64,000 bases of DNA from an uncultured Gemmatimonadaceae bacterium. Lineage in GTDB: Bacteria > Gemmatimonadota > Gemmatimonadetes > Gemmatimonadales > Gemmatimonadaceae. Under the pieces are notes generated by a model. It made no database searches and was not told the DNA's origin. It saw nothing but the letters and a program-made list of their open reading frames with translations. Shown piece after piece: positions 5,678-55,614 of this stretch. The stretch covers positions 608,001 through 672,000 of the forward strand of contig CAWBOC010000005.1 of assembly GCA_963790305.1 (NCBI GenBank), written 5' to 3'. Positions within the stretch are counted from its first letter, which is position 1. Every line of letters begins with the position of its first letter. The position numbers were made by a program, and so were the translations under genes.

Positions 5678-6736
5678 GTGACGCGGCGGCGTCTGAATCG
5701 TGGACAGCGCGTCAGGATCGACGCACCCTCCCCCCGATTCCTGCTCGTGGACATCGGCTTCGAGCTCACCAATCTCTGCAACCTGCACTGCACCCACTGC
5801 ATCCGTGGGTCGCATCAGGCGACCATCGAACGGCTCGATCTGGAGCTGATCCGCCGAGTGCTCGATGAAGCCACGGCGCTCTTCGGGTCGGTCGAGGTCG
5901 TATTCACCGGTGGGGAGCCACTGGCTTCGGAGCTCTTTCCCGCTGTGGTTCGGGAGCTGGCTCAGCGAGGTGTGTCGTACCGGTTCGTCACGAATGGATG
6001 GTTGGTGCCCCGTCATCTGCCGCTGCTTCAGTCGCACAGACCTCGCTTCGTGCGCGTAAGTCTGAGCGGGGGTACCGAGGCCACGCACGACGAGCAGCGC
6101 GGGAAGGGAAGCTTCCGGCGCGCGCTCCTGGGCGCGGCGTCCGTGCTCAGCCGGGGCATGATGGCCGAGCTGTCGCTGCTCCTCACGCGGCGAAGCCGAT
6201 CCGAGATCGGCGAGGCGATCGCCGTCGCCGCTGATCTCCGCGTTCGCGCACTGCACCTCACTCTCATGCAGCCAACGCCGGAGACCGCGGCCGCCGGGCT
6301 GGACCTTTCGCCGGAGGAGTGGCGCGAAATCGCCCGGGAAGTGAACGCGATAGCACCGCACGCGATCGTTCCGGTCGTTCTCGACTACGGCGGTCCGATG
6401 CCGGTGCCGCGCGAGCGTTGCAACACGCTCGCGTCGCGTCAGCTCTACATCGACGCGCGAGGACGGGTGCCTTTCTGCTGTCAGCTGTCCCGTTATGGCA
6501 ACGGCGGGGAGCAGATCGTCGGTGATCTCAGGACGGAGTCACTGGCCGCGATCGCTGCCCGGGCTGCGAGCGCGTACGACGCGTTTCACGGCGAAACCAC
6601 CCGTCTGCACCAGATAGGGAAGCTCGATGCGCTCGATGATTTCCCCTGCATGAGCTGCGCGCGTCGGCATGGACAGACGCGCTTCCTCACCGCGTTCCCG
6701 GGCCACTCCTGGACGCAGATCGCGCACGCGTCATGA
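5678..6736 (+). CDS. Radical SAM protein with SPASM/twitch-like C-terminus
   Basis: CNLHCTHC, FTGGEP, VTNG, HDEQRGKGSF; C-terminal ERC...YIDARGRVPFCC...CMSC. Confidence 0.92.
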   Translation: MTRRRLNRGQRVRIDAPSPRFLLVDIGFELTNLCNLHCTHCIRGSHQATIERLDLELIRRVLDEATALFGSVEVVFTGGEPLASELFPAVVRELAQRGVSYRFVTNGWLVPRHLPLLQSHRPRFVRVSLSGGTEATHDEQRGKGSFRRALLGAASVLSRGMMAELSLLLTRRSRSEIGEAIAVAADLRVRALHLTLMQPTPETAAAGLDLSPEEWREIAREVNAIAPHAIVPVVLDYGGPMPVPRERCNTLASRQLYIDARGRVPFCCQLSRYGNGGEQIVGDLRTESLAAIAARAASAYDAFHGETTRLHQIGKLDALDDFPCMSCARRHGQTRFLTAFPGHSWTQIAHAS

Positions 6737-7495
6737 GCGTCGCGACCCGGCCCTGGGAGTGGGAGGACGTCCGAGCAACCACCGACGAAAACGGCGTGCA
6801 TCTCGCGCACGTCGCGGAGCCGGCGGAGCTCCTGCTGCGCAAAGGGCGCCTGGTGCGAGGAGCGGGGTACGATACGGCTTCGCCAACGGCACGGCGGTCA
6901 CTTGCGCGAGTCGGGGCGATTCTTCGTCTACGCGCGCGGGGCCGCTACCTGGTGCACGCCTCGGCCGTCGTCGATCCGGCCGGGGGCGCGTGGCTCCTCG
7001 CCGGCGACAGCGGCAGCGGCAAGTCCACGCTGGCCTGGGTCCTCGTCAGGCAGGGGTGGTCATTGCTCGGCGACGATGGCGTGCTCATCGAGGATGCCGA
7101 GGGGGGTCTCGTGGCCCGCGCCTGGCGCGATCCTCTGCGTGTGAGCCTCGGCCTCGCCAAGCAGTTTCCTGAGTTGCAGGCGTTGGCGCCGCGCGTCGCC
7201 GCGCGCGATCCGCGCGCTCGCGTACCGGTGGAGCGGGAGGTCGTCCGTCAGGCACCGGTGCGGAGGATTCTCCTTCTCGAGCGTTCGCAGCGCGACCGCG
7301 TGCTTCGAGTGGGCCCCGCCGTCACGCTCGCCTCGCTCGTGCGCCAGTCTCCGTGGGTGCCTCATCGACAATGAGGATGCGCCGCGTCACCTTACCGTGC
7401 TCGCGGCCACCGCGGACTCGGTGCCGGCGTTCCACCTCGCGCACACGGAGTCGCAGCTGGAGCAGTTGCCGCTCACCCTCGCCAGGCTCGCGTAG
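6733..7495 (+). CDS. HPr-kinase-related P-loop protein (frameshift at ~7360)
   Basis: HASAV, GDSGSGKST, LLGDD. An extra C at 7360 shifts the frame; the other frame continues LIDNEDAPRHL...LARLA to TAG 7495. ATGA overlap with the rSAM gene. Confidence 0.8.
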
Positions 7496-7571
7496 GCCAG
7501 CCCGTAGTGACCCCGAAGGGTATCGATTCGTCTAACCCGGATACCGGGCGACGACGCCCGCGAGGGGCACG

Positions 7572-7817
7572 ATGGGAGACATCGAGGACCTACAATCGCA
7601 CGTTAGCGGGTCGAGCGACGTGGGCGCGACACCGCGCTCGCGGCGCCCCTGGGTCGCGCCGACGCTGATGCGCCACGCCTCGCTCACGGCGCTGACGCTT
7701 CAGTATCCGGCGGGCCTCGTCGTGGATCCGAGTACCGGCGAGCTGCTCGATCCCAACAACCCCGCCGATCGCGTCAGGCTGGCCGACATCCCGGGAAGCA
7801 CGGGCTTCTTCCCGTGA
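7572..7817 (+). CDS. Putative RiPP precursor peptide (lasso/RRE-type leader)
   Basis: GAGGGG RBS; WVAPTLMRHASLTALT matches [YW]xxPxLxxxGxxxxxT spacing (Ala at the Gly position); stop overlaps the next start (GTGA). Confidence 0.7.
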   Translation: MGDIEDLQSHVSGSSDVGATPRSRRPWVAPTLMRHASLTALTLQYPAGLVVDPSTGELLDPNNPADRVRLADIPGSTGFFP

Positions 7818-8734
7818 CCTGGCGCGCCGGGCTCGCGCTCGCTGCCGTCCTCATCGCGAGTGGATGCGACGAGACCGGCCCGCTGGACGTCACACTCCCA
7901 GCCGTCGTATTCGTGTCAGGCACGGATCAGGATGCCGAGCTGTTTCTGTGGAGCGCGGACACGGTGACGCGCCTGACGAGCAATGCGTTCGGGGATGAGG
8001 AGCCGCACGTTGCCGCCGGCCGTCTCGTCTTCACGTCGGATCGCGACGGGAATCCCGAGGTGTACTTCTCGGATATGCGCGCCACCGCGCCGCGCCGTCT
8101 GACGACGCACACTGCGACCGATGGTGAGCCCGCACTGCATCCGGCGGGCGACCGCATCGTCTTCATCAGCATGCGCAGCGGTACGCCGCGTCTCTGGACC
8201 ATGGATACCCTCGGCGGATCGCTGGCGCCGCTCGCGACGGGCTCCGCGACTTTCTCTCCGGAGCGCGCACCGGCGTGGAGCCCGCAGGGCGATCGCATCG
8301 CCTTCACCTCGGCGCGAACGGGCACGTCGCAGGTGTTCGTCGTCGACGCGTCGGGAGGCGCTGCGGTGCAGCTGACGAGCGAGGCCGGCGGTGCGTTCGA
8401 TCCCTCCTGGAGTGCGTCAGGGACACAGATCGTCTATGCGACCAGCGCCGGCACGCCGCGCTTGCGGAGCATTCCAGCGACCGGGGGCGCGGCCGCGGAC
8501 TATGCCGTGCTTCCCGACACGGCGTTAGGCGAGCCGTCGTGCGGAGCGCATTACTGCGTCGCCGTGCGCGGTGCCTACGGAGAGGATGGCGACCTCGTCG
8601 CGTACGGGGCGCCGCGGGCAACCGGCGATGGCGTTGGGGTACCACCGATTCCACCTCCGCCGCAAACGACTGGGGTGAGAGTGCTGGTCGAGGGGGCGGG
8701 GAATGCTCGACAGCCGGCCATTGTGCCCGAGTAG
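7814..8734 (+). CDS. TolB-like PD40 beta-propeller lipoprotein
   Basis: Lipobox ASGC; repeated FTSDRDGNPEVY, PAWSPQGDRIAFTS, PSWSASG. Confidence 0.85.
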   Translation: MTWRAGLALAAVLIASGCDETGPLDVTLPAVVFVSGTDQDAELFLWSADTVTRLTSNAFGDEEPHVAAGRLVFTSDRDGNPEVYFSDMRATAPRRLTTHTATDGEPALHPAGDRIVFISMRSGTPRLWTMDTLGGSLAPLATGSATFSPERAPAWSPQGDRIAFTSARTGTSQVFVVDASGGAAVQLTSEAGGAFDPSWSASGTQIVYATSAGTPRLRSIPATGGAAADYAVLPDTALGEPSCGAHYCVAVRGAYGEDGDLVAYGAPRATGDGVGVPPIPPPPQTTGVRVLVEGAGNARQPAIVPE

Positions 8735-8741
8735 GGATTAT

Positions 8742-8881
8742 TCGTCTGAACGGCAAAGACGTCAGATATCAGAATACAGAATTCAGAATTCAGAAACGAC
8801 TACGGGGAGCCAGACTGGCTCCCCGCAGGTTTTGTCTGACATTCTGAATTCTGTATTCTGACGTCTCTGCCGTTCAGACGA
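8742..8881. repeat. Hairpin/MITE-like element family B (CAGAATT arms)
   Basis: TCGTCTGAACGGCA...TGCCGTTCAGACGA termini, CAGAAT(A/T) heptamers, inner GGGGAGCCAG-A-CTGGCTCCCC stem. Confidence 0.9.
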
Positions 8882-8882
8882 C

Positions 8883-12036: not shown

Positions 12037-12181
12037 GAGGAGATCGAGACCGCGCAGCCCACGGACGACGTTCGCGGGAAATCTCCGAGCACTTGCCTGT
12101 CGACCGTCGAGTCTCGCCGCAATCTCATTGCGATCTGGATGCGCTGGTGTTGTACTCCAGGCGCTTCTTACTGGAGGTGTC

Positions 12182-13669
12182 ATGCATTATCGCATTCGCG
12201 CCGCGCTGACCGCGACGGCGCTCGTCGTCGTCGCGTGCGAGGAGACAAGCCAGCCTGCCGCAACGGCACCTGAGGTCGCACTGCACCGGCAGGGCAACTC
12301 GTCAGGCACGGAGACCGGCCCGAGCCGGGTCGGCGCACCCATCCCCGTGGCAGTAAAGCTCCTCGCCGAAGGGCTGGCGTCGCCGATCACGATTGTCTCC
12401 GCTGACGACCGCACGGGCCGGCTCTTCATTGTCGACCAGACCGGCACAATCCACATCCTCACTCGACGAGGCGTGCTCCTGCCCACGCCGTTCCTCGACG
12501 TTCGCACGCGAATGGTTCCGCTCATGCCAGGATTCGACGAGCGTGGACTCCTCGGTCTTGCCTTTCACCCTGACTATCGAAAGAACGGTCGCTTCTTCGT
12601 GTATTACAGCGCGCCGTTGCGCGCCGGGGCACCGGCCGGCTTCAACCACACCGCGCGCATCGCCGAGTATCGTGTCTCCGGCAATCCGAACGTGGCCGAT
12701 CCCGCGAGTGAGCGGGTGATCCTCGAGGTCGACAAGCCGCAATTCAACCACAATGGCGGCACGGTCGCGTTCGGAAAGGATGGGTTTCTCTACATCTCGA
12801 TCGGTGACGGCGGCGGCGCGAACAATGTCGGACTCGGCCACGTCGAGGACTGGTATGCCGACAATGGCGGCGGCAACGGCCAGGACACCGAGCAGAACCT
12901 GCTTGGCAACATCCTGCGCATCGACATCGACCGTGGCTCGCCGTACGGGATTCCGCGAAACAACCCGTTCGTCGGAAAGCGCGGGCTCGACGAGATCTAC
13001 GCGTACGGGCTGCGCAATCCGTATCGCATGTCATTCGACCTGAAGCACGGACACCGCCTCTTCGTCGGCGACGCCGGTCAGGGGCTGTGGGAGGAGGTCA
13101 GCATCATCGAGCGCGGTGGCAACTATGGATGGAACGTGCGCGAAGGCACCCACTGCTTCGACGCCGAGAACAACACGGCGTCGCCGCCCGACTGTCCGCG
13201 TGCGGAACAGGCGCCCAGCCCGCATGCCGGTACACCGTTGCGGAACCCGATCATCGAGTATGCCAATTCCGCCAACACCGCGGCGCCAGCCGAGACGCGG
13301 TTGGGCGTAACCGTCATTGGTGGTCACGTCTATCGCGGCCATCGCATCAAGAAGCTCGAAGGCCAGTACGTGTTCGGCGACTTCAGCCGCACGTTCGCCC
13401 CGCCTAACGGCTCACTGCTGAGCGCTTCGGACGAGCGGCACGGGCTGTGGACCATCCGCGAGCTCAGCATTGCCAACCGTCCGAACGGGCGGCTGGGTCA
13501 CTACGTCCTCGGCTTCGGGCAGGACGACCGCGGGGAGGTGTACGTCGGCGTGCGTGACGTGCTCGGGCCGGCTGGCACAACTGGGAAAGTGTACAAGCTG
13601 GTTCCGGTCGATGATGACGACAATGATGATGATGACGACAACTCCGGGCCGGGAGGCGGCGATAACTAG
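12182..13669 (+). CDS. PQQ-dependent sugar dehydrogenase (GSDH family) lipoprotein
   Basis: GGAGGT RBS; ERGLLGLAFHP, NHNGG, GDGG, YAYGLRNPYR, GGNYGW. Confidence 0.9.
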   Translation: MHYRIRAALTATALVVVACEETSQPAATAPEVALHRQGNSSGTETGPSRVGAPIPVAVKLLAEGLASPITIVSADDRTGRLFIVDQTGTIHILTRRGVLLPTPFLDVRTRMVPLMPGFDERGLLGLAFHPDYRKNGRFFVYYSAPLRAGAPAGFNHTARIAEYRVSGNPNVADPASERVILEVDKPQFNHNGGTVAFGKDGFLYISIGDGGGANNVGLGHVEDWYADNGGGNGQDTEQNLLGNILRIDIDRGSPYGIPRNNPFVGKRGLDEIYAYGLRNPYRMSFDLKHGHRLFVGDAGQGLWEEVSIIERGGNYGWNVREGTHCFDAENNTASPPDCPRAEQAPSPHAGTPLRNPIIEYANSANTAAPAETRLGVTVIGGHVYRGHRIKKLEGQYVFGDFSRTFAPPNGSLLSASDERHGLWTIRELSIANRPNGRLGHYVLGFGQDDRGEVYVGVRDVLGPAGTTGKVYKLVPVDDDDNDDDDDNSGPGGGDN

Positions 13670-25304: not shown

Positions 25305-26657
25305 CTAACGGTCCTCCCCTCTGAACACCACCCTCCAAATCCTCCCCCCATCGTCGTCCGAGATGTACAACGACCCATCCGGCCCCTCGGCGAGCCCCAT
25401 CGGCCGATGCTCGGCGTCTGCGGGCGGGTTGGTCGAATTCCCAATGAATCCGTCCGCGAACACGTCCCATCCTCCGGCGGGTGCGTGACGTCCGAAGGGA
25501 ACGAACACGACGTTGAATCCCTCGTTGGGCAGCGGCGCGCGGTCGAAGCCGCCGTGGAACGCGACGAACGCCCCCCCTCTGAACCGCGATGGGAACTGCC
25601 TTCCGCCGTAGAAGAGCAGGTCGTTTGGTGCCCAGTGCCCGGGGAATGTCAACAGTGGGGTTTCCTTGTCCGCGCACCGCGGCCCGACGATGGTGCCGTT
25701 ACCGCCGTACTCGGGGGCCAGGAGCTTCAAGCGCTTCTTCCAGTCGTGGTAGCAGTACGGCCAGCCGTTGTCGTCACCGCGGTCGATGCGGATGAACTCC
25801 TCGGACGGCAGGTCGGCGCCATCCTGCGGTGTGTAGAACTGCGGCCAGTGGTCGTTGAGATGGTCGCGACCGTGCTGGACCCCGAACAGAGCCTCACGAC
25901 CCTCGTCCCACCGCAGCGCCTCCATGTTTCGGAGCCCTGTGGCGAAGTGAATCCCGTCGGCCTGTGTCTGTCCGGTGCGCGTCGCGCTGAACCGCCAGAC
26001 ACCGGCACGAATCGGCAGCTCGGGACATGGATCGACGCCGGGCGACTGCGCGACACGGTTCGCCACCTGACAGGAGTTCGACGCCGAGCCAATGTTCACG
26101 TACATGTTGCCGCGATCGTCGAGCTGCATGTTCTTGCGGAAGTGATCGCCGTCGGAGGGCAACCCGCCCACGACGATCTCGGGCGCTCCGCGGGGAAGCA
26201 GGTCGTTGGAATGGAGCCGCCATCTCACGATGCGATCGCGATAGCCGACGTACAGGAACTCCTGCGTGACCACGATGCCGTTCGCGTTCGGCTCGCCGAA
26301 GTATGCCCGCGTTTCAGCGCGTCCGTCTCCGTCGCGGTCGCGCAGCGCGAGCACGCCGCCCCCGTGGGTCGCATCTCCGATGGCGACGTACGCATCGCCC
26401 TTGCGCGTGATGCCGAGATGTCGCGCTCGCCCGACCTGATCGGCGACCACAACGGCGCAGAAGCCGGGCGGCAGCGTGATCCCGCCGTTGCCGGCGTCGC
26501 ACTCGACGCGGGCGTCCGAGTGCCTGAGGGCAACGTCGGTGCTACCGTCCAGCGCTTCTGGTCCCGTGACTCTGTCAGCGCAGGCGACGATCCCAATGCA
26601 CGTCGCGATCGTGGCGAGCGCACGTGTGTGTGAATACCAGCAAGACGTCGTTTGCAT
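25305..26657 (-). CDS. PQQ-dependent sugar/sorbosone dehydrogenase-like lipoprotein
   Basis: GGAGG RBS, lipobox IVAC, LPPGF, NIGSASN, ATGLRN, GWPYC, AFHGG, RPMGLAEGPDGSLYISDD. Confidence 0.88.
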   Translation of the reverse strand: MQTTSCWYSHTRALATIATCIGIVACADRVTGPEALDGSTDVALRHSDARVECDAGNGGITLPPGFCAVVVADQVGRARHLGITRKGDAYVAIGDATHGGGVLALRDRDGDGRAETRAYFGEPNANGIVVTQEFLYVGYRDRIVRWRLHSNDLLPRGAPEIVVGGLPSDGDHFRKNMQLDDRGNMYVNIGSASNSCQVANRVAQSPGVDPCPELPIRAGVWRFSATRTGQTQADGIHFATGLRNMEALRWDEGREALFGVQHGRDHLNDHWPQFYTPQDGADLPSEEFIRIDRGDDNGWPYCYHDWKKRLKLLAPEYGGNGTIVGPRCADKETPLLTFPGHWAPNDLLFYGGRQFPSRFRGGAFVAFHGGFDRAPLPNEGFNVVFVPFGRHAPAGGWDVFADGFIGNSTNPPADAEHRPMGLAEGPDGSLYISDDDGGRIWRVVFRGEDR

Positions 26658-26817
26658 GGATCTCCTCCCTGGTTGGAGCATTCGACGGGGGGAGCGCCTT
26701 CAAGTGCCGTACGATGTCGCATGAGCCGATGTCGGGTTTCGACGCATTCGCGCAGAAGGTGCTGAGACCGCGGCGAGTGGTCATCATCGCGCGGTGACGG
26801 CGAGTGATCCTTCTCAC

Positions 26818-49937: not shown

Positions 49938-51083
49938 ATGCTGCCCCGACTCTTTAGTGGATTGAAGGAAGCCGACGCGCGCGCCCTGGCGCTCGCAGCC
50001 CTGTTCTTCTCGGTAGCCGTCGCCGCCGGATGCTCGTCGCACGCGGAAGCGTCGGATGAGCAGCCGGTGACGGCGACCGCCGTCCGTGTTCGCTCCGCGG
50101 CCGCCGTGGAGCGACCGATGCTCGTCAATGCCAGTGGAACCGTCGACGCGAACACGACTGCCGACGTCGCGTTCCAGGTCAGTGGAAAGATCAGCCGCGT
50201 CGCCGTCGAGGAAGGTCAGCTCGTGCGCGCCGGGCAGCTGCTCGCCGCCGTCGATCCGACCGACTATCAGCTGTCGGCGCAGCAGGCCAACGCCAGCGCC
50301 GCTCAGGCGAAGGGCGAGTTCGAGCGCATGCGGCAGCTACATGAGAAGGGAAGCCTTGCCCCGAACGACTTCGCCAAGTTCCAGGCGGCGGCCGAGGTGG
50401 CGACGTCGAATGCGTCGCTGGCGCAGAAACGCCTTGGCGACACGCAACTCACCTCCCCGATCTCCGGCGTCGTCGCGCGACGCGGGGTCGAGCTCGGTGA
50501 GATGGCGTCACCCGGCATGCCGGCCTTTACGATCGTCGCTGTCGATCCGGTCGAGATCCGCGTCGGCATCCCGGAATCGCAGATCGGTCTGATCCGTCGC
50601 GGCGCGACGGCGACCATCGCCGTTCCGGCGCTGCCGGGTCCGATGTACACCGCCCGCGTCACGATGATTGGCGTCTCGGCTGACGCGGCATCGCGCACGT
50701 ATCCGGTGAAGATCGATGTACCGAACCCCGGCCAGAAGCTGCTGCCGGGCATGATCGCCGAAGCTCACATCAGCGGAAATCGCATTACGCGTGCGTTCAC
50801 CGTGCCCGGTGAGGCCGTCGTGCGCGATGCTGAAGGCGCCACGCTCGTGTTCATCTACTTCCCGGCTGAGAAGCGCGTCTACAGCCGCCGCGTTACCGTC
50901 GGTGCGCCAATCGATCGCGAGATCGAGATCACCGATGGCGTCGTGCCAGGCGAGCTCATCGTCATCGCTGGCCAGGACCGCCTCCGCGACGGCGCTGCCG
51001 TCGACGCGACGGTCGAGGAAGCACAGGCTGATTCCACGAAGACCGTCGTCCAGACCACCACCGCCGCAGGATCCGTCAGATGA
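49938..51083 (+). CDS. RND efflux periplasmic adaptor (lipoprotein)
   Basis: GGAGGT RBS, lipobox AAGC, VSGKI..V.VEEGQ.V, SPISGVV, LLPGM. Confidence 0.93.
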   Translation: MLPRLFSGLKEADARALALAALFFSVAVAAGCSSHAEASDEQPVTATAVRVRSAAAVERPMLVNASGTVDANTTADVAFQVSGKISRVAVEEGQLVRAGQLLAAVDPTDYQLSAQQANASAAQAKGEFERMRQLHEKGSLAPNDFAKFQAAAEVATSNASLAQKRLGDTQLTSPISGVVARRGVELGEMASPGMPAFTIVAVDPVEIRVGIPESQIGLIRRGATATIAVPALPGPMYTARVTMIGVSADAASRTYPVKIDVPNPGQKLLPGMIAEAHISGNRITRAFTVPGEAVVRDAEGATLVFIYFPAEKRVYSRRVTVGAPIDREIEITDGVVPGELIVIAGQDRLRDGAAVDATVEEAQADSTKTVVQTTTAAGSVR

Positions 51084-54000
51084 AAATCGTCAAGGATTCA
51101 CTCAAATATCCGGCGGTCACGCTGACGCTGATCGCGATGGTCGTCATCGCGGGCGCGCTGTCGCTGCTCAAGATGCCGCGTCGCGAGGACCCGCAGATCA
51201 CGATTCGTGCGGGCCTGGTGATGGCCTTCTATCCGGGCGCCACCGCCGAGCAGGTAGAGGCGCAGGTCACGCGCAAGATCGAGGAGCGGCTCTTCCGCTT
51301 CTCCGAGGTGAAGAAACGGAAGACCTTCTCCACCAGCCGCGATGGCATTGTCATCGTGCAGCTCGAGCTCGAGGACTGGGTCACGGACCCGGACCTGTTC
51401 TGGTCGAAGCTGCGGCACGACATGAACGAGCTGAAGAGTCGTGAGCTGCCGCAGGAAGTACAGGGAGTCACGGTCGATGGTGACTTCGGCGACACGGTTG
51501 CCCAGCTCATCGCCGTCTCCGGCGAGCGCTACGGCTACCGGGAGCTGAAGGACTACGTTGGCCGGATCGAGGACGCGCTGCGCGCCATTCCCGCCACCTC
51601 GAAGATCAAGCGGTATGGGGAGCAGCGAGAGCAGATCGAGGTCGCGACATCGTTGTCGCGGTTGTCACAGTATTCGCGTCACGCCGACGCAGATCATCTC
51701 GGCGCTTCGGCAACAGAACCTCGTTGAGTACGCGGGCAGCTTCGAGACGGAAGCGGGCGACGTGCCGCTCCAGACGTCGGGCCTGTTCCAGACGGAGGAT
51801 CAGCTGCGAGCGCGTGATGGTGGACGTGTCGAAGACGACGGGGCAGCCGGTGTATCTCGGTGACTTCACCGACGTGCGCCGCCGCTACGAGGATCCCTCG
51901 TCGTTCGTGCGCGTCGACGGCAAAGCCGCCGTCATGCTGTCGGTGGAGATGCAGGAAGGGAACAACATCGTGGAGTTCGGCGCGGCGGTGGAGGAAGCGC
52001 TCGCCGAAGTGAAGCGGACCTTCCCGCCGGATCTCAAGGTCACCCTGGTGGCGGATCAGCCGCGCGTCGTCGAGGAGCGGATCAGTCACTTCAATCGCGA
52101 GTTCGCGATCGCGATCGTGGCGGTCGTGCTCGTCACGATGCTGTTGCTGCCCTGGCGCGTGGCGACGATTGCCGCCGTCGCCATCCCGGTCACGATCGCG
52201 TGCACGTTCGCAGCGCTGGACTGGGTTGGCGTGGAGCTGCACCAGGTGTCGATCGCGGCGCTGATCGTCGTGCTCGGCATGGTCGTCGATGACGCCATCG
52301 TCATCGCCGACAACTACGTGGAGCTGCTCGATCATGGGTTGACGCGCGCCGAAGCGGCGTGGCGCAGCTCGAGCGACCTCGCGGCGCCGGTGCTCGCGGC
52401 AACGCTGACGATCATCGCATCGTTCGTCCCGCTCGCGTGGCTCTCCGGAACAACGGGTGAGTTCATTCGCGCACTGCCAATCACGGTTGCCGTGTCGCTC
52501 CTCTGCTCCTTCGTCGTGGCGATGGTGCTGACGCCGATCCTGGCGTACACCTTCATCAAGACGGGGCTACGGGCGCACCAGCCTGAGGGATACACACCGC
52601 ACGTGCAGCAGCCCCCGCGCACCTGGCTCGGGCGCGTTCGCGCCTTCAGGCCGCTCGACGCGATGGAGCGTGCCTACGACTGGGCGATTCGCATCGCCAT
52701 GCCGCGCAAGCGGCTGACGCTGTTGTCCGGCGTCGCGGCGTTTTTCGCCGGTCTCGTCATGTTGAGCTTCGTCGCCGACCAGTTCTTCCCGTTGGCTGAG
52801 CGCGACCAGTTCGTGATCGACGTCTGGATGAAAGAGGGCACGCGCATTGGTGCCACCGATGCCGCCGTTCGCAGCATCGAGGCGGAGCTCGAGCGCACCC
52901 CGAACGTGACCGAGGTTGCGTCGATCATCGGGGCCGGCGCGCCGCGGTTCTACTATGCGATCTCGCCCGAGATCTCGACGCCGTCGTACGCGCAGATCGT
53001 CGTCAACACGACGTCGCCGGAGATCACGCCGGAGATCGTGAAGGAGCTCAGTCACAAGCTGCCGGCTCTCGCGCCCGAAGCGCACATCATGGTGAAGGAG
53101 CTGCAGCAGGGCGCCACGTCGGCGGCACCCGTCGAAATCCGCATCACCAGCGAGGACATGGGAACGCTCAAGAAGGTGGGCGCCCAGATCCAGACGCTAT
53201 TCTACAACACGCCCGGCACGCGGGACATCACGACCGACTTCCGGAACGACACCTACCGCCTGGCGGTGAAGGTCAATCAGGAAGCGGCCAGTCGTGTCGG
53301 CCTGACGAGCGCCGGTATTTCACGGTTGCTCGCGGGTGGCTTCGAGGGGGCTCCCGTCTCGACGTTCTGGGAAGGAAGCCGCGCCGTGGACATCACCCTT
53401 CGCCTGGGCGAGAGCGAGCGGCAGCGCTTCGACGACATCTCCGCGGCGTACATCACGTCCGAGGTCACGGGCGCCCGCGTTCCGCTCAGTCAGGTGGCGA
53501 CGCTGACGCCGGTGTGGGAGCCAAGCCGGATCGTGCACCGCAACGGGTTGCGCACACTCACGGTTCGCACGTTCGCGCAGGAGGGATTCCTCCCGTCGCA
53601 GGTGCTGGCGACGATCCGCGCCACGACCGATACGCTCACGCTGCCCGAAGGCACGTCGATCGAATACGGTGGCGAGTACGAGAACCAGACGGACACGCAG
53701 GGCGAGATGTACATCGCCCTGATGATAAGCCTTGTCATGATCTTCCTGATTCTGCTGCTGCAGTTCCGGAACATTCGTATTCCGCTGGTCGTGATGGTCT
53801 CCATTCCGCTGGCCGTCGTCGGCGCAGCACTCGGCCTGTTGATGACCGGCAATCCGTTCAGCTTCACCGCGTTCCTCGGAGTGATCGGGCTCATGGGGCT
53901 CGTCGTCCGAAACGCGATCATCCTGGTGGACTACATGAATGAGCAGCTCGCGAAGGGGGTCGAAGTGGAGCAGGCGGCGATCGATGCGGGCCGTCGCCGG

Positions 54001-55614
54001 CTGCGGCCGATCTTCCTGACGACGATGGCCGCCGCCGCCGGCGTGCTGCCGATGATTCTGTCGGGCTCGAGCATGTGGTCGCCGCTCGCCAGCGTGCTGG
54101 CAATGGGACTCATTGTGTCGATGATTTTCACGCTGATCGTGGTGCCCGTGTTGTACGTCGTCGTCGAGGGCCGCCGTCACAAGAAGCCCGCGGCGCCGGC
54201 CCCGGTGAAGGCACCGCTATGGGAAGAGGAAGAAGAGGACGAGAACGCGGCGGTATTCACCGGCGCCCATCCGATGGTCAAGGTGACCCCCGTGCTCGCG
54301 ATCGCGTTAGGGATCGCCTTCTCGGTCTCGACTGCCTCGGCGCAGGAAGCGACCGGTCGCCTGACGCTGGAGGATGCCGTCGCGATTGCGCTTCAAAAGA
54401 ACAGCGGTGTGCGCGTGGCGCGCAGCCGCGCCGAGGAAGCCATGTATCGCACGCAGCAGTCGACACGCTCGATGCTGCCGTCGATCAGCGCGACCTTTCA
54501 GACGACGCAAAGCACCGCCAACGAGCGACTGGAGTTCGCGCGGGGCTCGCTGGGAGTGTTCGACGGGCAGCCGATTCCCAACGAGAACATCGCGATCGAG
54601 CAGGGCGGCAGCAGCTCGAGATACGGGACGCTGACGATCGCACAGCCTATCACGTCGCTGCTGAAGATTCGGGCGGCGCGTGACGTGGCCAAGGCGGAGG
54701 AGCGCTCGTTCACCGCTGAGGCTCGGAAGGCTGAGCTCGACGTCGCACTGGCCGTGGAGAAGGTGTACTACGGCCTGCTCGTGGCGCAGCATCGCCGGCA
54801 GGCGGCGGCGCTGCGAGTTGACGTCACCGAGGACGCGCTTCGTCACCGTGTCCGCAGCGTCGCGAACGGCACGCAGCTCCCCGTCGCGGAGCTCGAGGGA
54901 CGCACCGCGGCGCTGGATGCCCGGCAGAGCTTGCAGGCGGCCGAGGACGAGATTGCCGACTACGCGGCCACGCTCTCCGAGCTGTTAGGCGTGCCGGTCG
55001 ATCCCGCCGTGCAGTTGGTGACACCGGCGCGCGCGAACCTGGCCGACTCGGTCACGGTCGACGGCCTGATCGGACGGGCGATGGTAGACAACCCGGACGT
55101 GGCGGCGGCAGGTGAGATGGTGCGGCAGGCGGAAGGAGGGCTGCGAGCGAAGCGCGCGGCGTATATCCCCGACGTCGCGGTATATGGCACCGAGATGTAT
55201 CAGACAGCGGTGCCGTTGCTGGCCAAGAACAATTTCATGTTCGGGATCAAGGCCGAGTGGACGGTATTCGACTTCGGCAAGCGTGAGGCGAGCGTCGCCG
55301 AGTTGCGCGCGACAAAGCGAACGGCCGAGGAAAATCTGCAGCGCGTGCGGCGCGAGATCGCGACGGACATCGAGCAGGGACAGCGAAAGGTCGAGCGGGC
55401 TCGGCGCAGCGCAGTGCTGGCGGGAGAAGTTTTGACCCTTCGGCGCGAAGCGGCGCGGATCAAGATCGACCAGGTGGCGAGTGGGCTGATACTGGCCACC
55501 GAGGGTGCGGAGGCGGAGGCGGCTGTCGCGAGCGCGCAGGCCGATGCGCTCGCCGCGGAAGTTGGATACCGATTGGCGGTGGCTGAGCTCAAGAGAGCGG
55601 CTGGAATGCGGTAA
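51080..55614 (+). CDS. RND permease fused to TolC-like OMF (frameshifts ~51674, ~51810)
   Basis: PRREDP, GMVVDDAIV, RNAII, RRLRPIFLTT, then in frame LTLEDAVAIAL, WTVFDFG and OMF helices. Two single-base insertions join three ORF-track segments. Confidence 0.88.

Follow-up and report, generated by a model that had tools for sequence, protein, structure and literature searches.

The stretch of DNA analysed here (the window) comprises 64,000 nucleotides of an uncultured Gemmatimonadaceae bacterium and corresponds to positions 608001-672000 of contig C5 (C5:608001-672000) in a 4.3-Mb genome of 13 contigs. Its plus strand carries four co-oriented genes that appear to be one part of a system maturing a peptide that is made on the ribosome and then modified after translation (RiPP). 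The first (5678..6736) codes for a radical S-adenosylmethionine (rSAM) enzyme of the SPASM type, 352 aa long. The second, coding for an HprK-like kinase, is interrupted: the open reading frame (ORF) at 6733..7374 comprises the N-terminal 209 residues followed by four out-of-frame codons, and the C-terminal 43 codons, recognized by tblastn and DNA alignment, lie in the +1 frame at 7364..7498 (codons 7364-7495). The third (7572..7817) codes for the 81-aa precursor peptide, recognized by its leader motif, its family and its ratio of non-synonymous to synonymous substitutions (dN/dS), and the fourth (7814..8734) for a PD40 (TolB-like) beta-propeller lipoprotein (85.1 bits to Pfam PD40) with a signal peptide and the lipobox LIASGC. 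The rSAM and kinase genes overlap by ATGA, while the precursor stop and the lipoprotein start share GTGA; this arrangement, described in a first-pass annotation of the window, is borne out by the list of predicted ORFs.

The rSAM protein matches Pfam Radical_SAM with 62.2 bits and SPASM with 22.1 bits (cut-off 21.5), and reaches no NCBIfam equivalog, the best models, MftC, StsB and ScmF, all being far under their cut-offs. The CxxxCxxC cysteines C34, C38 and C41, as well as C248, C267, C268, C324 and C327, are invariant in 50 rSAM homologues. In an AlphaFold2 model (predicted local distance difference test, pLDDT, of 88.4) the first 20 residues are disordered, the radical SAM core beginning at about residue 24 and leaving no room for a fused RiPP recognition element (RRE). 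As nearest solved folds, Foldseek with this model returned BlsE, PqqE, SkfB, SuiB, anSME and CteB, with a probability of 1.00 and template modelling (TM) scores of about 0.5-0.6, and the closest sequence in PDB is that of PqqE. With the CxxxCxxC motif, the C-terminal Cys-rich auxiliary-cluster domain and the fold, the protein has the features of the radical SAM/SPASM-twitch maturases. The orthologue of one close relative (L067:8001-9008) is interrupted in frame by a stop, at codon 253 of the aligned stretch, and is either a pseudogene or affected by an assembly error.

The kinase is recognized by matches lying below the cut-offs, 26.9 bits to Pfam Hpr_kinase_C (cut-off 33.3) and weaker-than-threshold hits to the NCBIfam models HprK_rel_A/B and ScmC, but it retains the P-loop GDSGSGKST and the LLGDD motif, and is identical in 84-89% to intact orthologues from L067-L070 and L038 and in 72% to that from L079. 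The break, already suspected in the first-pass annotation, is confirmed by DNA alignment with five relatives: a single extra C at ~7360, found in the window only, shifts the last 43 codons into the +1 frame. In L038 the N-terminal part and the piece corresponding to the tail are joined in one frame according to tblastn, and the out-of-frame tail of the window is still 79% identical to that of the orthologue. The listed contigs of four sequencing runs do not bridge the site, one contig ending at 7358; in a search of sequencing runs with the window DNA the best DNA run shares 0.32 of the sampled words, and no RNA run is found among the matches listed. Since the same assembly has two other frameshift-like breaks, one in a lasso cyclase gene and one in an RND (resistance-nodulation-division) pump gene, the additional base may stem from faulty assembly.

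The 81-aa peptide, for which Pfam and NCBIfam give no match, reads ...RRPWVAPTLMRHASLTALT-L-QYPAGLVVDPSTGELLDPNNPADRVRLADIPGSTGFFP, with the layout ...RRPW27VAPTLMRHASLTALT42-L-Q44YPAGLVVD52...GS76TGFFP. The leader motif W27-T42 occupies 7650-7697, and the predicted core Q44-P81 lies at 7701-7814, a junction after L43 being predicted by analogy with lasso B2 proteases, which follow a Thr(-2) rule. The leader had been proposed to follow the spacing of lasso peptide leaders; this holds for W27, P30, L32 and T42, but not for the Gly of the lasso motif, which is replaced by A36. A strict lasso regular expression with Gly at position 10 found only three peptides, and a family-specific one was used instead, in which W, Y or F was allowed at position 1, S and T were free to alternate at position 16, and P was required. 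It matches only once, namely the window ORF, in all six frames of the 4.3-Mb genome, and 66 ORFs in 64 of the 80 loci with rSAM homologues (see below), and the match of the leader therefore exceeds chance. In 41 of the 66 cases the precursor ORF is situated immediately upstream of the rSAM gene; in the clade of the window it is placed between the genes for the kinase and the PD40 lipoprotein instead. The neighbourhood check thus shows that a conserved W-type precursor, expected from the first-pass annotation, does accompany most of the homologous rSAM/kinase loci.

The 64 short peptides of this family all have W at position 1 and Thr at position 16, neither of which was forced by the regular expression; the consensus of their leaders is RRPWxxPx[LV]x[ED]LP[RK]LT[DE]LT or ..xHASLTALT, with Lys or Arg standing before the motif. 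The cores are 13-38 residues long, with a mean Gly content of 28%, and contain either no Cys (43 of 64, including that of the window) or exactly two (21 of 64). Among the 64 cores, 15 have Asp or Glu at one of the positions 7-9 and 19 are devoid of acidic residues, so that Asp at position 9 and the lack of Cys, noted earlier for the window core, hold for this peptide, while Asp-9 is not a trait of the family. The C-termini are more uniform: Phe is found among the last four residues in 58 and Ser or Thr among the last seven in 60 of the 64 peptides, and the endings are TVF, TCF, FFP or FCP. Four types of core can be distinguished, the majority type ...QTGSPIGGGGxGGSTVF, a second type ...QMQYPQD..PCSQGFCP, the window type QYP..VVDP.TG.LLDPNNP....ADIPGSTGFFP, and the Longimicrobium forms, e.g. 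..APIDGNCGTGGSTCF. Q44, Y45 and S76 do not vary among the 16 Gemmatimonadaceae peptides, and D52 hardly does. The precursor has a dN/dS of 0.11-0.49 in 15 pairs, indicating purifying selection, and 101 metagenomic homologues, mostly of exactly 81 aa, all of them unnamed, were found; judged by its conservation, the window-type ORF is a real gene.

Homologues of the rSAM enzyme are present in 28 of 401 sampled Gemmatimonadota genomes. Among GTDB species genomes 139 stretches with rSAM relatives were found, and 80 loci were kept for analysis; those bearing a taxon name in their titles all belong to Gemmatimonadota (Gemmatimonadales or Longimicrobiales), the remainder being titled 'bacterium'. The genes around them were defined by tblastn with the proteins of the window and of the loci (29 + 80 loci) and by Pfam searches with representative genes. 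They make up a cassette comprising the precursor, the rSAM/SPASM enzyme, a propeller-type lipoprotein designated x484, the PD40 lipoprotein, a PqqD protein (PF05402), a B2-type protease (Transglut_core3, PF13471), the HprK-like kinase and a nucleotidyltransferase (NTase; NTP_transf_5, PF14907). Its recurrent form in Gemmatimonadota can be written precursor-rSAM-(lipoprotein)-PD40-PqqD-Transglut_core3-kinase-(NTP_transf_5). The kinase was found in 43 of the 80 loci, PD40 in 47, PqqD in 38, B2 in 25, the NTase in 20, x484 in 43, and a lasso cyclase in none; many of the loci are cut by contig ends, and these counts are lower bounds because few tblastn queries were used. Among the 31 loci in which the rSAM gene is flanked by 5 kb or more on each side, the precursor is present in 26, PD40 in 25, the kinase in 21, PqqD in 18, B2 in 12 and the NTase in 11. 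The PD40 lipoprotein is thus no bystander but a conserved member of the cassette. For the x484-type lipoprotein, Pfam, a PDB sequence search and a protein atlas give no family beyond a cluster confined to Gemmatimonadota. As far as can be judged from these sequences, the cassette is so far found only in Gemmatimonadota soil bacteria.

Neither PqqD nor Transglut_core3 has a match inside the window, and Pfam searches with 31 of its 51 predicted ORFs reveal no lasso cyclase and no ATP-binding cassette (ABC) exporter, in agreement with the first-pass annotation, which had assumed partners acting in trans. The genome search places a PqqD and a Transglut_core3 gene in a second locus (locus B, C5:446,396-449,403) on the same contig, ~165 kb upstream of the four genes (locus A). 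Locus B comprises a row of genes for a lipoprotein (411 aa), PqqD, B2 and NTP_transf_5, with the gene for an HD protein as its neighbour, the PqqD and Transglut_core3 genes lying at C5:447.7-448.4k. Its PqqD scores 59.9 bits in Pfam, the best matches of the PqqD proteins being lasso-type chaperone models, and its protease passes the NCBIfam model lasso_biosyn_B2 (NF033537) with 60.9 bits against a cut-off of 33, the B2 Cys and His being invariant in 14 sequences. Identity to the copies borne within cassettes of sister Gemmatimonadaceae clades is 42-60% for PqqD, 40-55% for B2 and 35-43% for the NTase, levels comparable to those of the rSAM enzyme (58-65%) and the kinase (44-59%) at the same sister loci. 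Moreover, the locus B lipoprotein is 40% identical to the product of a gene lying between the precursor and rSAM genes in L076, and the HD protein is 59-61% identical to that of a cassette-flanking gene in L077 and L078. When compared with the genome's own lasso cluster, in contrast, the locus B B2 shows 40% identity over 75 aa (E 1.5e-5) to the lasso B2, and sequence comparison gave no match between PqqD and the lasso B1.

By these identities, the proteins of locus B and their counterparts within cassettes are orthologues, and, since they have diverged to the same level as the rSAM enzyme and the kinase, the ancestral order precursor-lipoprotein-rSAM-kinase-PqqD-B2-NTase-PD40-(HD) is seen as partitioned into two loci with no component lost. 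The five nearest relatives have locus A with an intact kinase, and in four of the five locus B is retained, there on another contig. The partners postulated to act in trans, an RRE, a B2-type protease, an NTP_transf_5 protein and a lipoprotein, are thus found.

Gene content, conservation, orthology and selection make it reasonably probable that the window contains locus A of a two-locus RiPP maturation system, derived from the machinery of paeninodin-type lasso peptides and employing an RRE-less rSAM/SPASM enzyme and no cyclase. The earlier proposal of an undescribed, rSAM-modified and possibly phosphorylated peptide whose partners act in trans thus has bioinformatic support. In such a system the discrete RRE would bind the W-x-x-P-x-L leader and hand the peptide to the rSAM enzyme in the manner of PqqD and PqqE, and a radical modification, probably a cross-link, would be introduced into the core, the candidate sites in the branch of the window being Q44, Y45 and D52. 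The RRE would also present the peptide to the kinase. The likeliest phosphate acceptor across the family would be the conserved Ser/Thr of the C-terminal G-S-T-x-F motif, which in the window branch would be S76 within G-S-T-G-F-F-P, and the NTase may extend the phosphate. Cleavage by B2 after Thr(-2)-Leu(-1) would remove the leader, and the product would probably end up with the co-conserved periplasmic beta-propeller lipoproteins. Decarboxylation of the MftC type at the C-terminus was considered and dropped, as 23 of the 64 peptides end in a residue other than Phe.

Several observations speak against this interpretation. The kinase of the window is frameshifted, 7 of the 31 well-flanked loci have neither a kinase nor PqqD within reach, and the chemistry performed by the rSAM enzyme is not readable from its sequence. 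Some positions of the leader seem invariant because the regular expression demanded them, although W and T were free to vary. Divergent genes for B2 and the NTase are undercounted when tblastn is run with a small number of queries, and all the assemblies are of the metagenome-assembled genome (MAG) type.

The link to the propeller lipoproteins invites another reading, in which the system would not yield a free, antibiotic-like natural product and would be directed at a protein: it would mature an N-terminal extension of, or for, the propeller lipoproteins, which the modified peptide would serve as pro-piece, small subunit or ligand, the stand-alone precursors being split-off versions of the lipoprotein extension. 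Of the 31 well-flanked loci, 26 contain a propeller lipoprotein. In the clade of the window the precursor gene overlaps by its stop codon with the beginning of the PD40 gene, and in L076 and L082 the start of the lipoprotein gene overlaps the 3' end of the precursor gene. Furthermore, in L123:439-7968 three tandem ORFs of ~800 aa are located upstream of the rSAM gene, in which a leader and a Gly-rich core (..RRPW..P..LPKLTELTL-LSPIGGGGGIGGSTVF; …GGSTVF) run into a hydrophobic stretch with a lipobox (GLLLAAGLLFGVGAC), followed by the propeller protein. Altogether 22 leader-core-lipoprotein fusions of 451-833 aa (P0103-P0124) occur in several Gemmatimonadales assemblies; 17 of them match the full regular expression, and of the other five, four start inside the leader and one has Ala in place of the motif Pro.

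These fusions hint, tentatively, at a new route of lipoprotein maturation, in which a leader read by the RRE and cut by B2, together with a core modified by the rSAM enzyme and the kinase, would precede the lipoprotein signal peptide. The ~22 Gemmatimonadales proteins would have this arrangement in fused form, the window in a split form held together by translational coupling, and the modified piece would gate the export of the propeller lipoprotein or become its cross-linked small subunit or cofactor. The gamma subunit QhpC and pyrroloquinoline quinone (PQQ) serve propeller enzymes comparably. In quinohemoprotein amine dehydrogenase the rSAM/SPASM enzyme QhpD cross-links QhpC, a small leader-bearing polypeptide, which after export is associated with a beta-propeller subunit in the periplasm. 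The QhpC/QhpD pair thus provides a precedent for maturation directed at a protein, but the QhpC cross-links need Cys, which is absent in 43 of the 64 cores. Against this reading, in most loci the precursor has a small gene of its own, situated immediately before the rSAM gene (41 of 66 ORFs), the signal peptide remaining after a cut by B2 would be deprived of its charged N-region, and fusions were seen in one Gemmatimonadales sublineage only. We hold a protein-directed function to be rather unlikely.

That the locus is a decaying remnant, deprived of RRE and protease, with an interrupted kinase gene and yielding no product, would agree with the frameshift and with the absence of PqqD, B2 and the NTase from the window. 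It is nevertheless improbable: five relatives are split in the same way and have an intact kinase, four of them keep locus B, loci A and B together retain all components of the cassette, and the precursor is under purifying selection. The kinase tail, although out of frame, has kept its similarity to the orthologue's, and the frameshift may be an artefact of the assembly, given the two other frameshift-like breaks.

The genome also has a canonical lasso cluster, located on contig C9 at about 416-420.3k (L007:4088-8315). It comprises B1, B2, a cyclase, an HprK-like kinase, an ABC transporter and two precursors of the Y-type, both with Ser as the last residue, and its PqqD and Transglut_core3 matches lie at C9:419.6-420.3k. 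The cyclase is divided into two overlapping ORFs, while its orthologue in the same genus is a 703-aa open frame. It is the only cyclase of the genome and lies beside its own Y-type precursors. The idea that a cyclase is the missing partner of the rSAM system is not borne out, as tblastn with both halves of the C9 cyclase found none in the 80 rSAM loci. Cyclases occur in 62 of the 401 Gemmatimonadota genomes, a tally that includes one genome flagged as unpublished and omitted elsewhere, and they coincide with the rSAM gene in 4 of the 28 rSAM-positive genomes; as ~4.3 would be expected from the 62/401 frequency, there is no enrichment of co-occurrence. In 29 cyclase loci that were read (L151-L180, with L176 omitted) the regular expression has matches in 25 loci, 29 matches being Y-type and four W-type. 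The four W-type matches were rejected by eye as spurious, being Arg-rich off-frame ORFs. The genuine cyclase-linked precursors, identified by eye, are all of the Y-type, with a uniform leader YxKPx[LV]xRFGxxRELT; most end in Ser, and their cores are long, about 17-41 residues. Of the attributes of a lasso cluster, the system described here has the leader and, in trans, a discrete RRE and B2, and has neither the cyclase nor, in most of the family, the Asp/Glu acceptor at positions 7-9. Gln is also unusual as residue 1 of a lasso core. Hence, closure of a Q1-D9 ring in trans by the C9 cyclase, with the rSAM enzyme and the kinase as tailoring enzymes, is very improbable: the lasso spacing of the leader, Thr at -2, Asp at core position 9, its near invariance in 16 Gemmatimonadaceae peptides and the presence of the C9 cluster speak for it, but the cyclase is missing from all 80 rSAM loci and matched in only four of 28 rSAM-positive genomes, no more than 15 of 64 cores have Asp/Glu at positions 7-9, 19 being without any acidic residue, and all 64 leaders are W-type, not Y-type like the genuine cyclase-linked precursors of the phylum.

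Among known systems, the cassette shares with paeninodin-type lasso clusters, as portrayed by Popov et al. (Nat Commun 2026, PMC13381572), the [Y/W]xxPx[L/V]...T(-2) leader, a discrete PqqD-type RRE (B1), the B2 Cys protease, the HprK-like kinase and NTP_transf_5. It differs in the lack of the Asn-synthetase-like cyclase, the presence of the rSAM/SPASM enzyme and propeller lipoproteins, a W-type leader in place of the phylum's Y-type one, and a core usually devoid of an Asp/Glu acceptor and of a C-terminal Ser; in the window peptide, ending in ...GSTGFFP, Ser is six residues from the end, while most cyclase-linked precursors end in it. According to the same source, tailoring by HprK-like kinases and NTP transferases depends on an RRE in both paeninodin-type lasso peptides and the cyclase-less linear polyphosphorylated peptides (LPP) of Bacillota (PMC13381572). 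LPP are the closest published analogue of the present system. LPP pathways are likewise derived from lasso ones, lack a cyclase, combine an RRE, an HprK-like kinase and an NTase, and reside together with a lasso cluster from which they are separated by a W/Y difference in the leader. Their own features are a SipW-like signal peptidase, an MsbA-like exporter, no rSAM enzyme and the leader YxxPxVLxHQxIxFETxxS (PMC13381572), whereas the Gemmatimonadota system has B2 in the role of the peptidase, an added rSAM/SPASM enzyme and lipoproteins, and leaders that do not match the LPP consensus. In Bacillota a W/Y split of this kind separates pathways, the paeninodin-type lasso leaders co-resident with LPP being W-type (PMC13381572), so that the residues have exchanged places in the present system. 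The same paper notes a lasso-like motif in PqqA leaders, and the RRE-Finder paper reports that lasso-type discrete RREs often adjoin rSAM enzymes.

PqqD and PqqE provide another parallel, in that an RRE-less rSAM/SPASM enzyme and a separate PqqD chaperone act on a small peptide, and PqqE is among the nearest sequences and folds of the window enzyme. The two systems differ, since there is no PqqA-like E-x-x-x-Y core, the PqqE equivalog is matched with 42.6 against a cut-off of 381, and a kinase, B2 and an NTase are present here. The SynChlorMet cassette and the HPr-rel-A system, both defined bioinformatically in NCBIfam/TIGRFAMs, share with the present cassette an rSAM/SPASM enzyme, a PqqD-family chaperone and an HprK-related protein. 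The scores are far under the SynChlorMet cut-offs (ScmF 71.7 vs 400, ScmC 29.7 vs 125, ScmD 27.5 vs 100, ScmE likewise below), the single exception being the PqqD of L061, which just reaches the PqqD_rel_X cut-off (35.1 vs 35). To our knowledge, B2, an NTase and lipoproteins are not part of the SynChlorMet and HPr-rel-A cassettes. Mycofactocin was rejected because of the score of MftC (TIGR03962, 73.7 bits vs a cut-off of 265) and the peptide endings TVF, TCF, FFP or FCP instead of GVY, and a sactipeptide or ranthipeptide because Cys donors are absent from 43 of the 64 cores, including that of the window, the other 21 having two. Motif and system searches of the open literature, subscription journals and supplements being outside their scope, found no description of the cassette, nor is it mentioned in the available part of PMC10288494. 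Judged by its gene content and conservation, it is a real and conserved variant of RiPP machinery that has apparently not been described before.

The row of four genes is closed by a strong GC-rich hairpin with T-runs on both strands (8803..8825), which forms a bidirectional terminator. It is enclosed by an inverted repeat of ~140 nt (8741-8882) with AT-rich arms (cagaatacagaattcagaattcaga), located between two convergent genes. The left arm (8748-8800) reaches a summed contig depth of 367-974 in the soil/root metagenome runs X1 and X2, a very high value, for which the repeat looks like a dispersed element of the repetitive extragenic palindrome (REP) or miniature inverted-repeat transposable element (MITE) type. 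An RND pump is situated 40 kb away from the four genes. It lies at 51080-55611 of the window and appears broken and mis-joined, with the AcrB profile divided between ORFs of 215 and 1296 aa, the latter also having an outer-membrane factor (OEP) domain. As the third anomaly of the frameshift type in this assembly, it hints at indel errors. In one genus (L040-L043) a set of three genes coding for an ATPase-like protein, a ~415-aa protein and, in L042, an 843-aa protein is situated divergently upstream of the precursor-rSAM pair; by eye, the N-termini resemble a MacAB-type exporter, and the set may be a clade-specific exporter candidate. Two further propeller genes of the window, at 12128-13666 and 25308-26681, belong to the GSDH family (soluble glucose/sorbosone dehydrogenase-type), the enzymes of which are usually PQQ-dependent. 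No canonical pqq operon was seen in the genome with a PqqD query, its only two PqqD matches being of the RiPP type.

If the proposed two-locus system is true, it would be the second known re-use of the lasso machinery without a cyclase, after LPP in Bacillota, the first case of an rSAM/SPASM enzyme in the cyclase's place, and a new RiPP family in a poorly studied soil phylum. It would offer an independent natural test of whether the W or Y residue of the leader keeps two RRE-dependent pathways apart in one cell. The two loci would show that a RiPP cluster can be cleanly partitioned between distant sites, and genome mining based on gene neighbourhood would miss such systems. Finally, the fusions of a leader and core to lipoproteins raise the possibility that RiPP-type machinery acts on proteins bound to the cell envelope.

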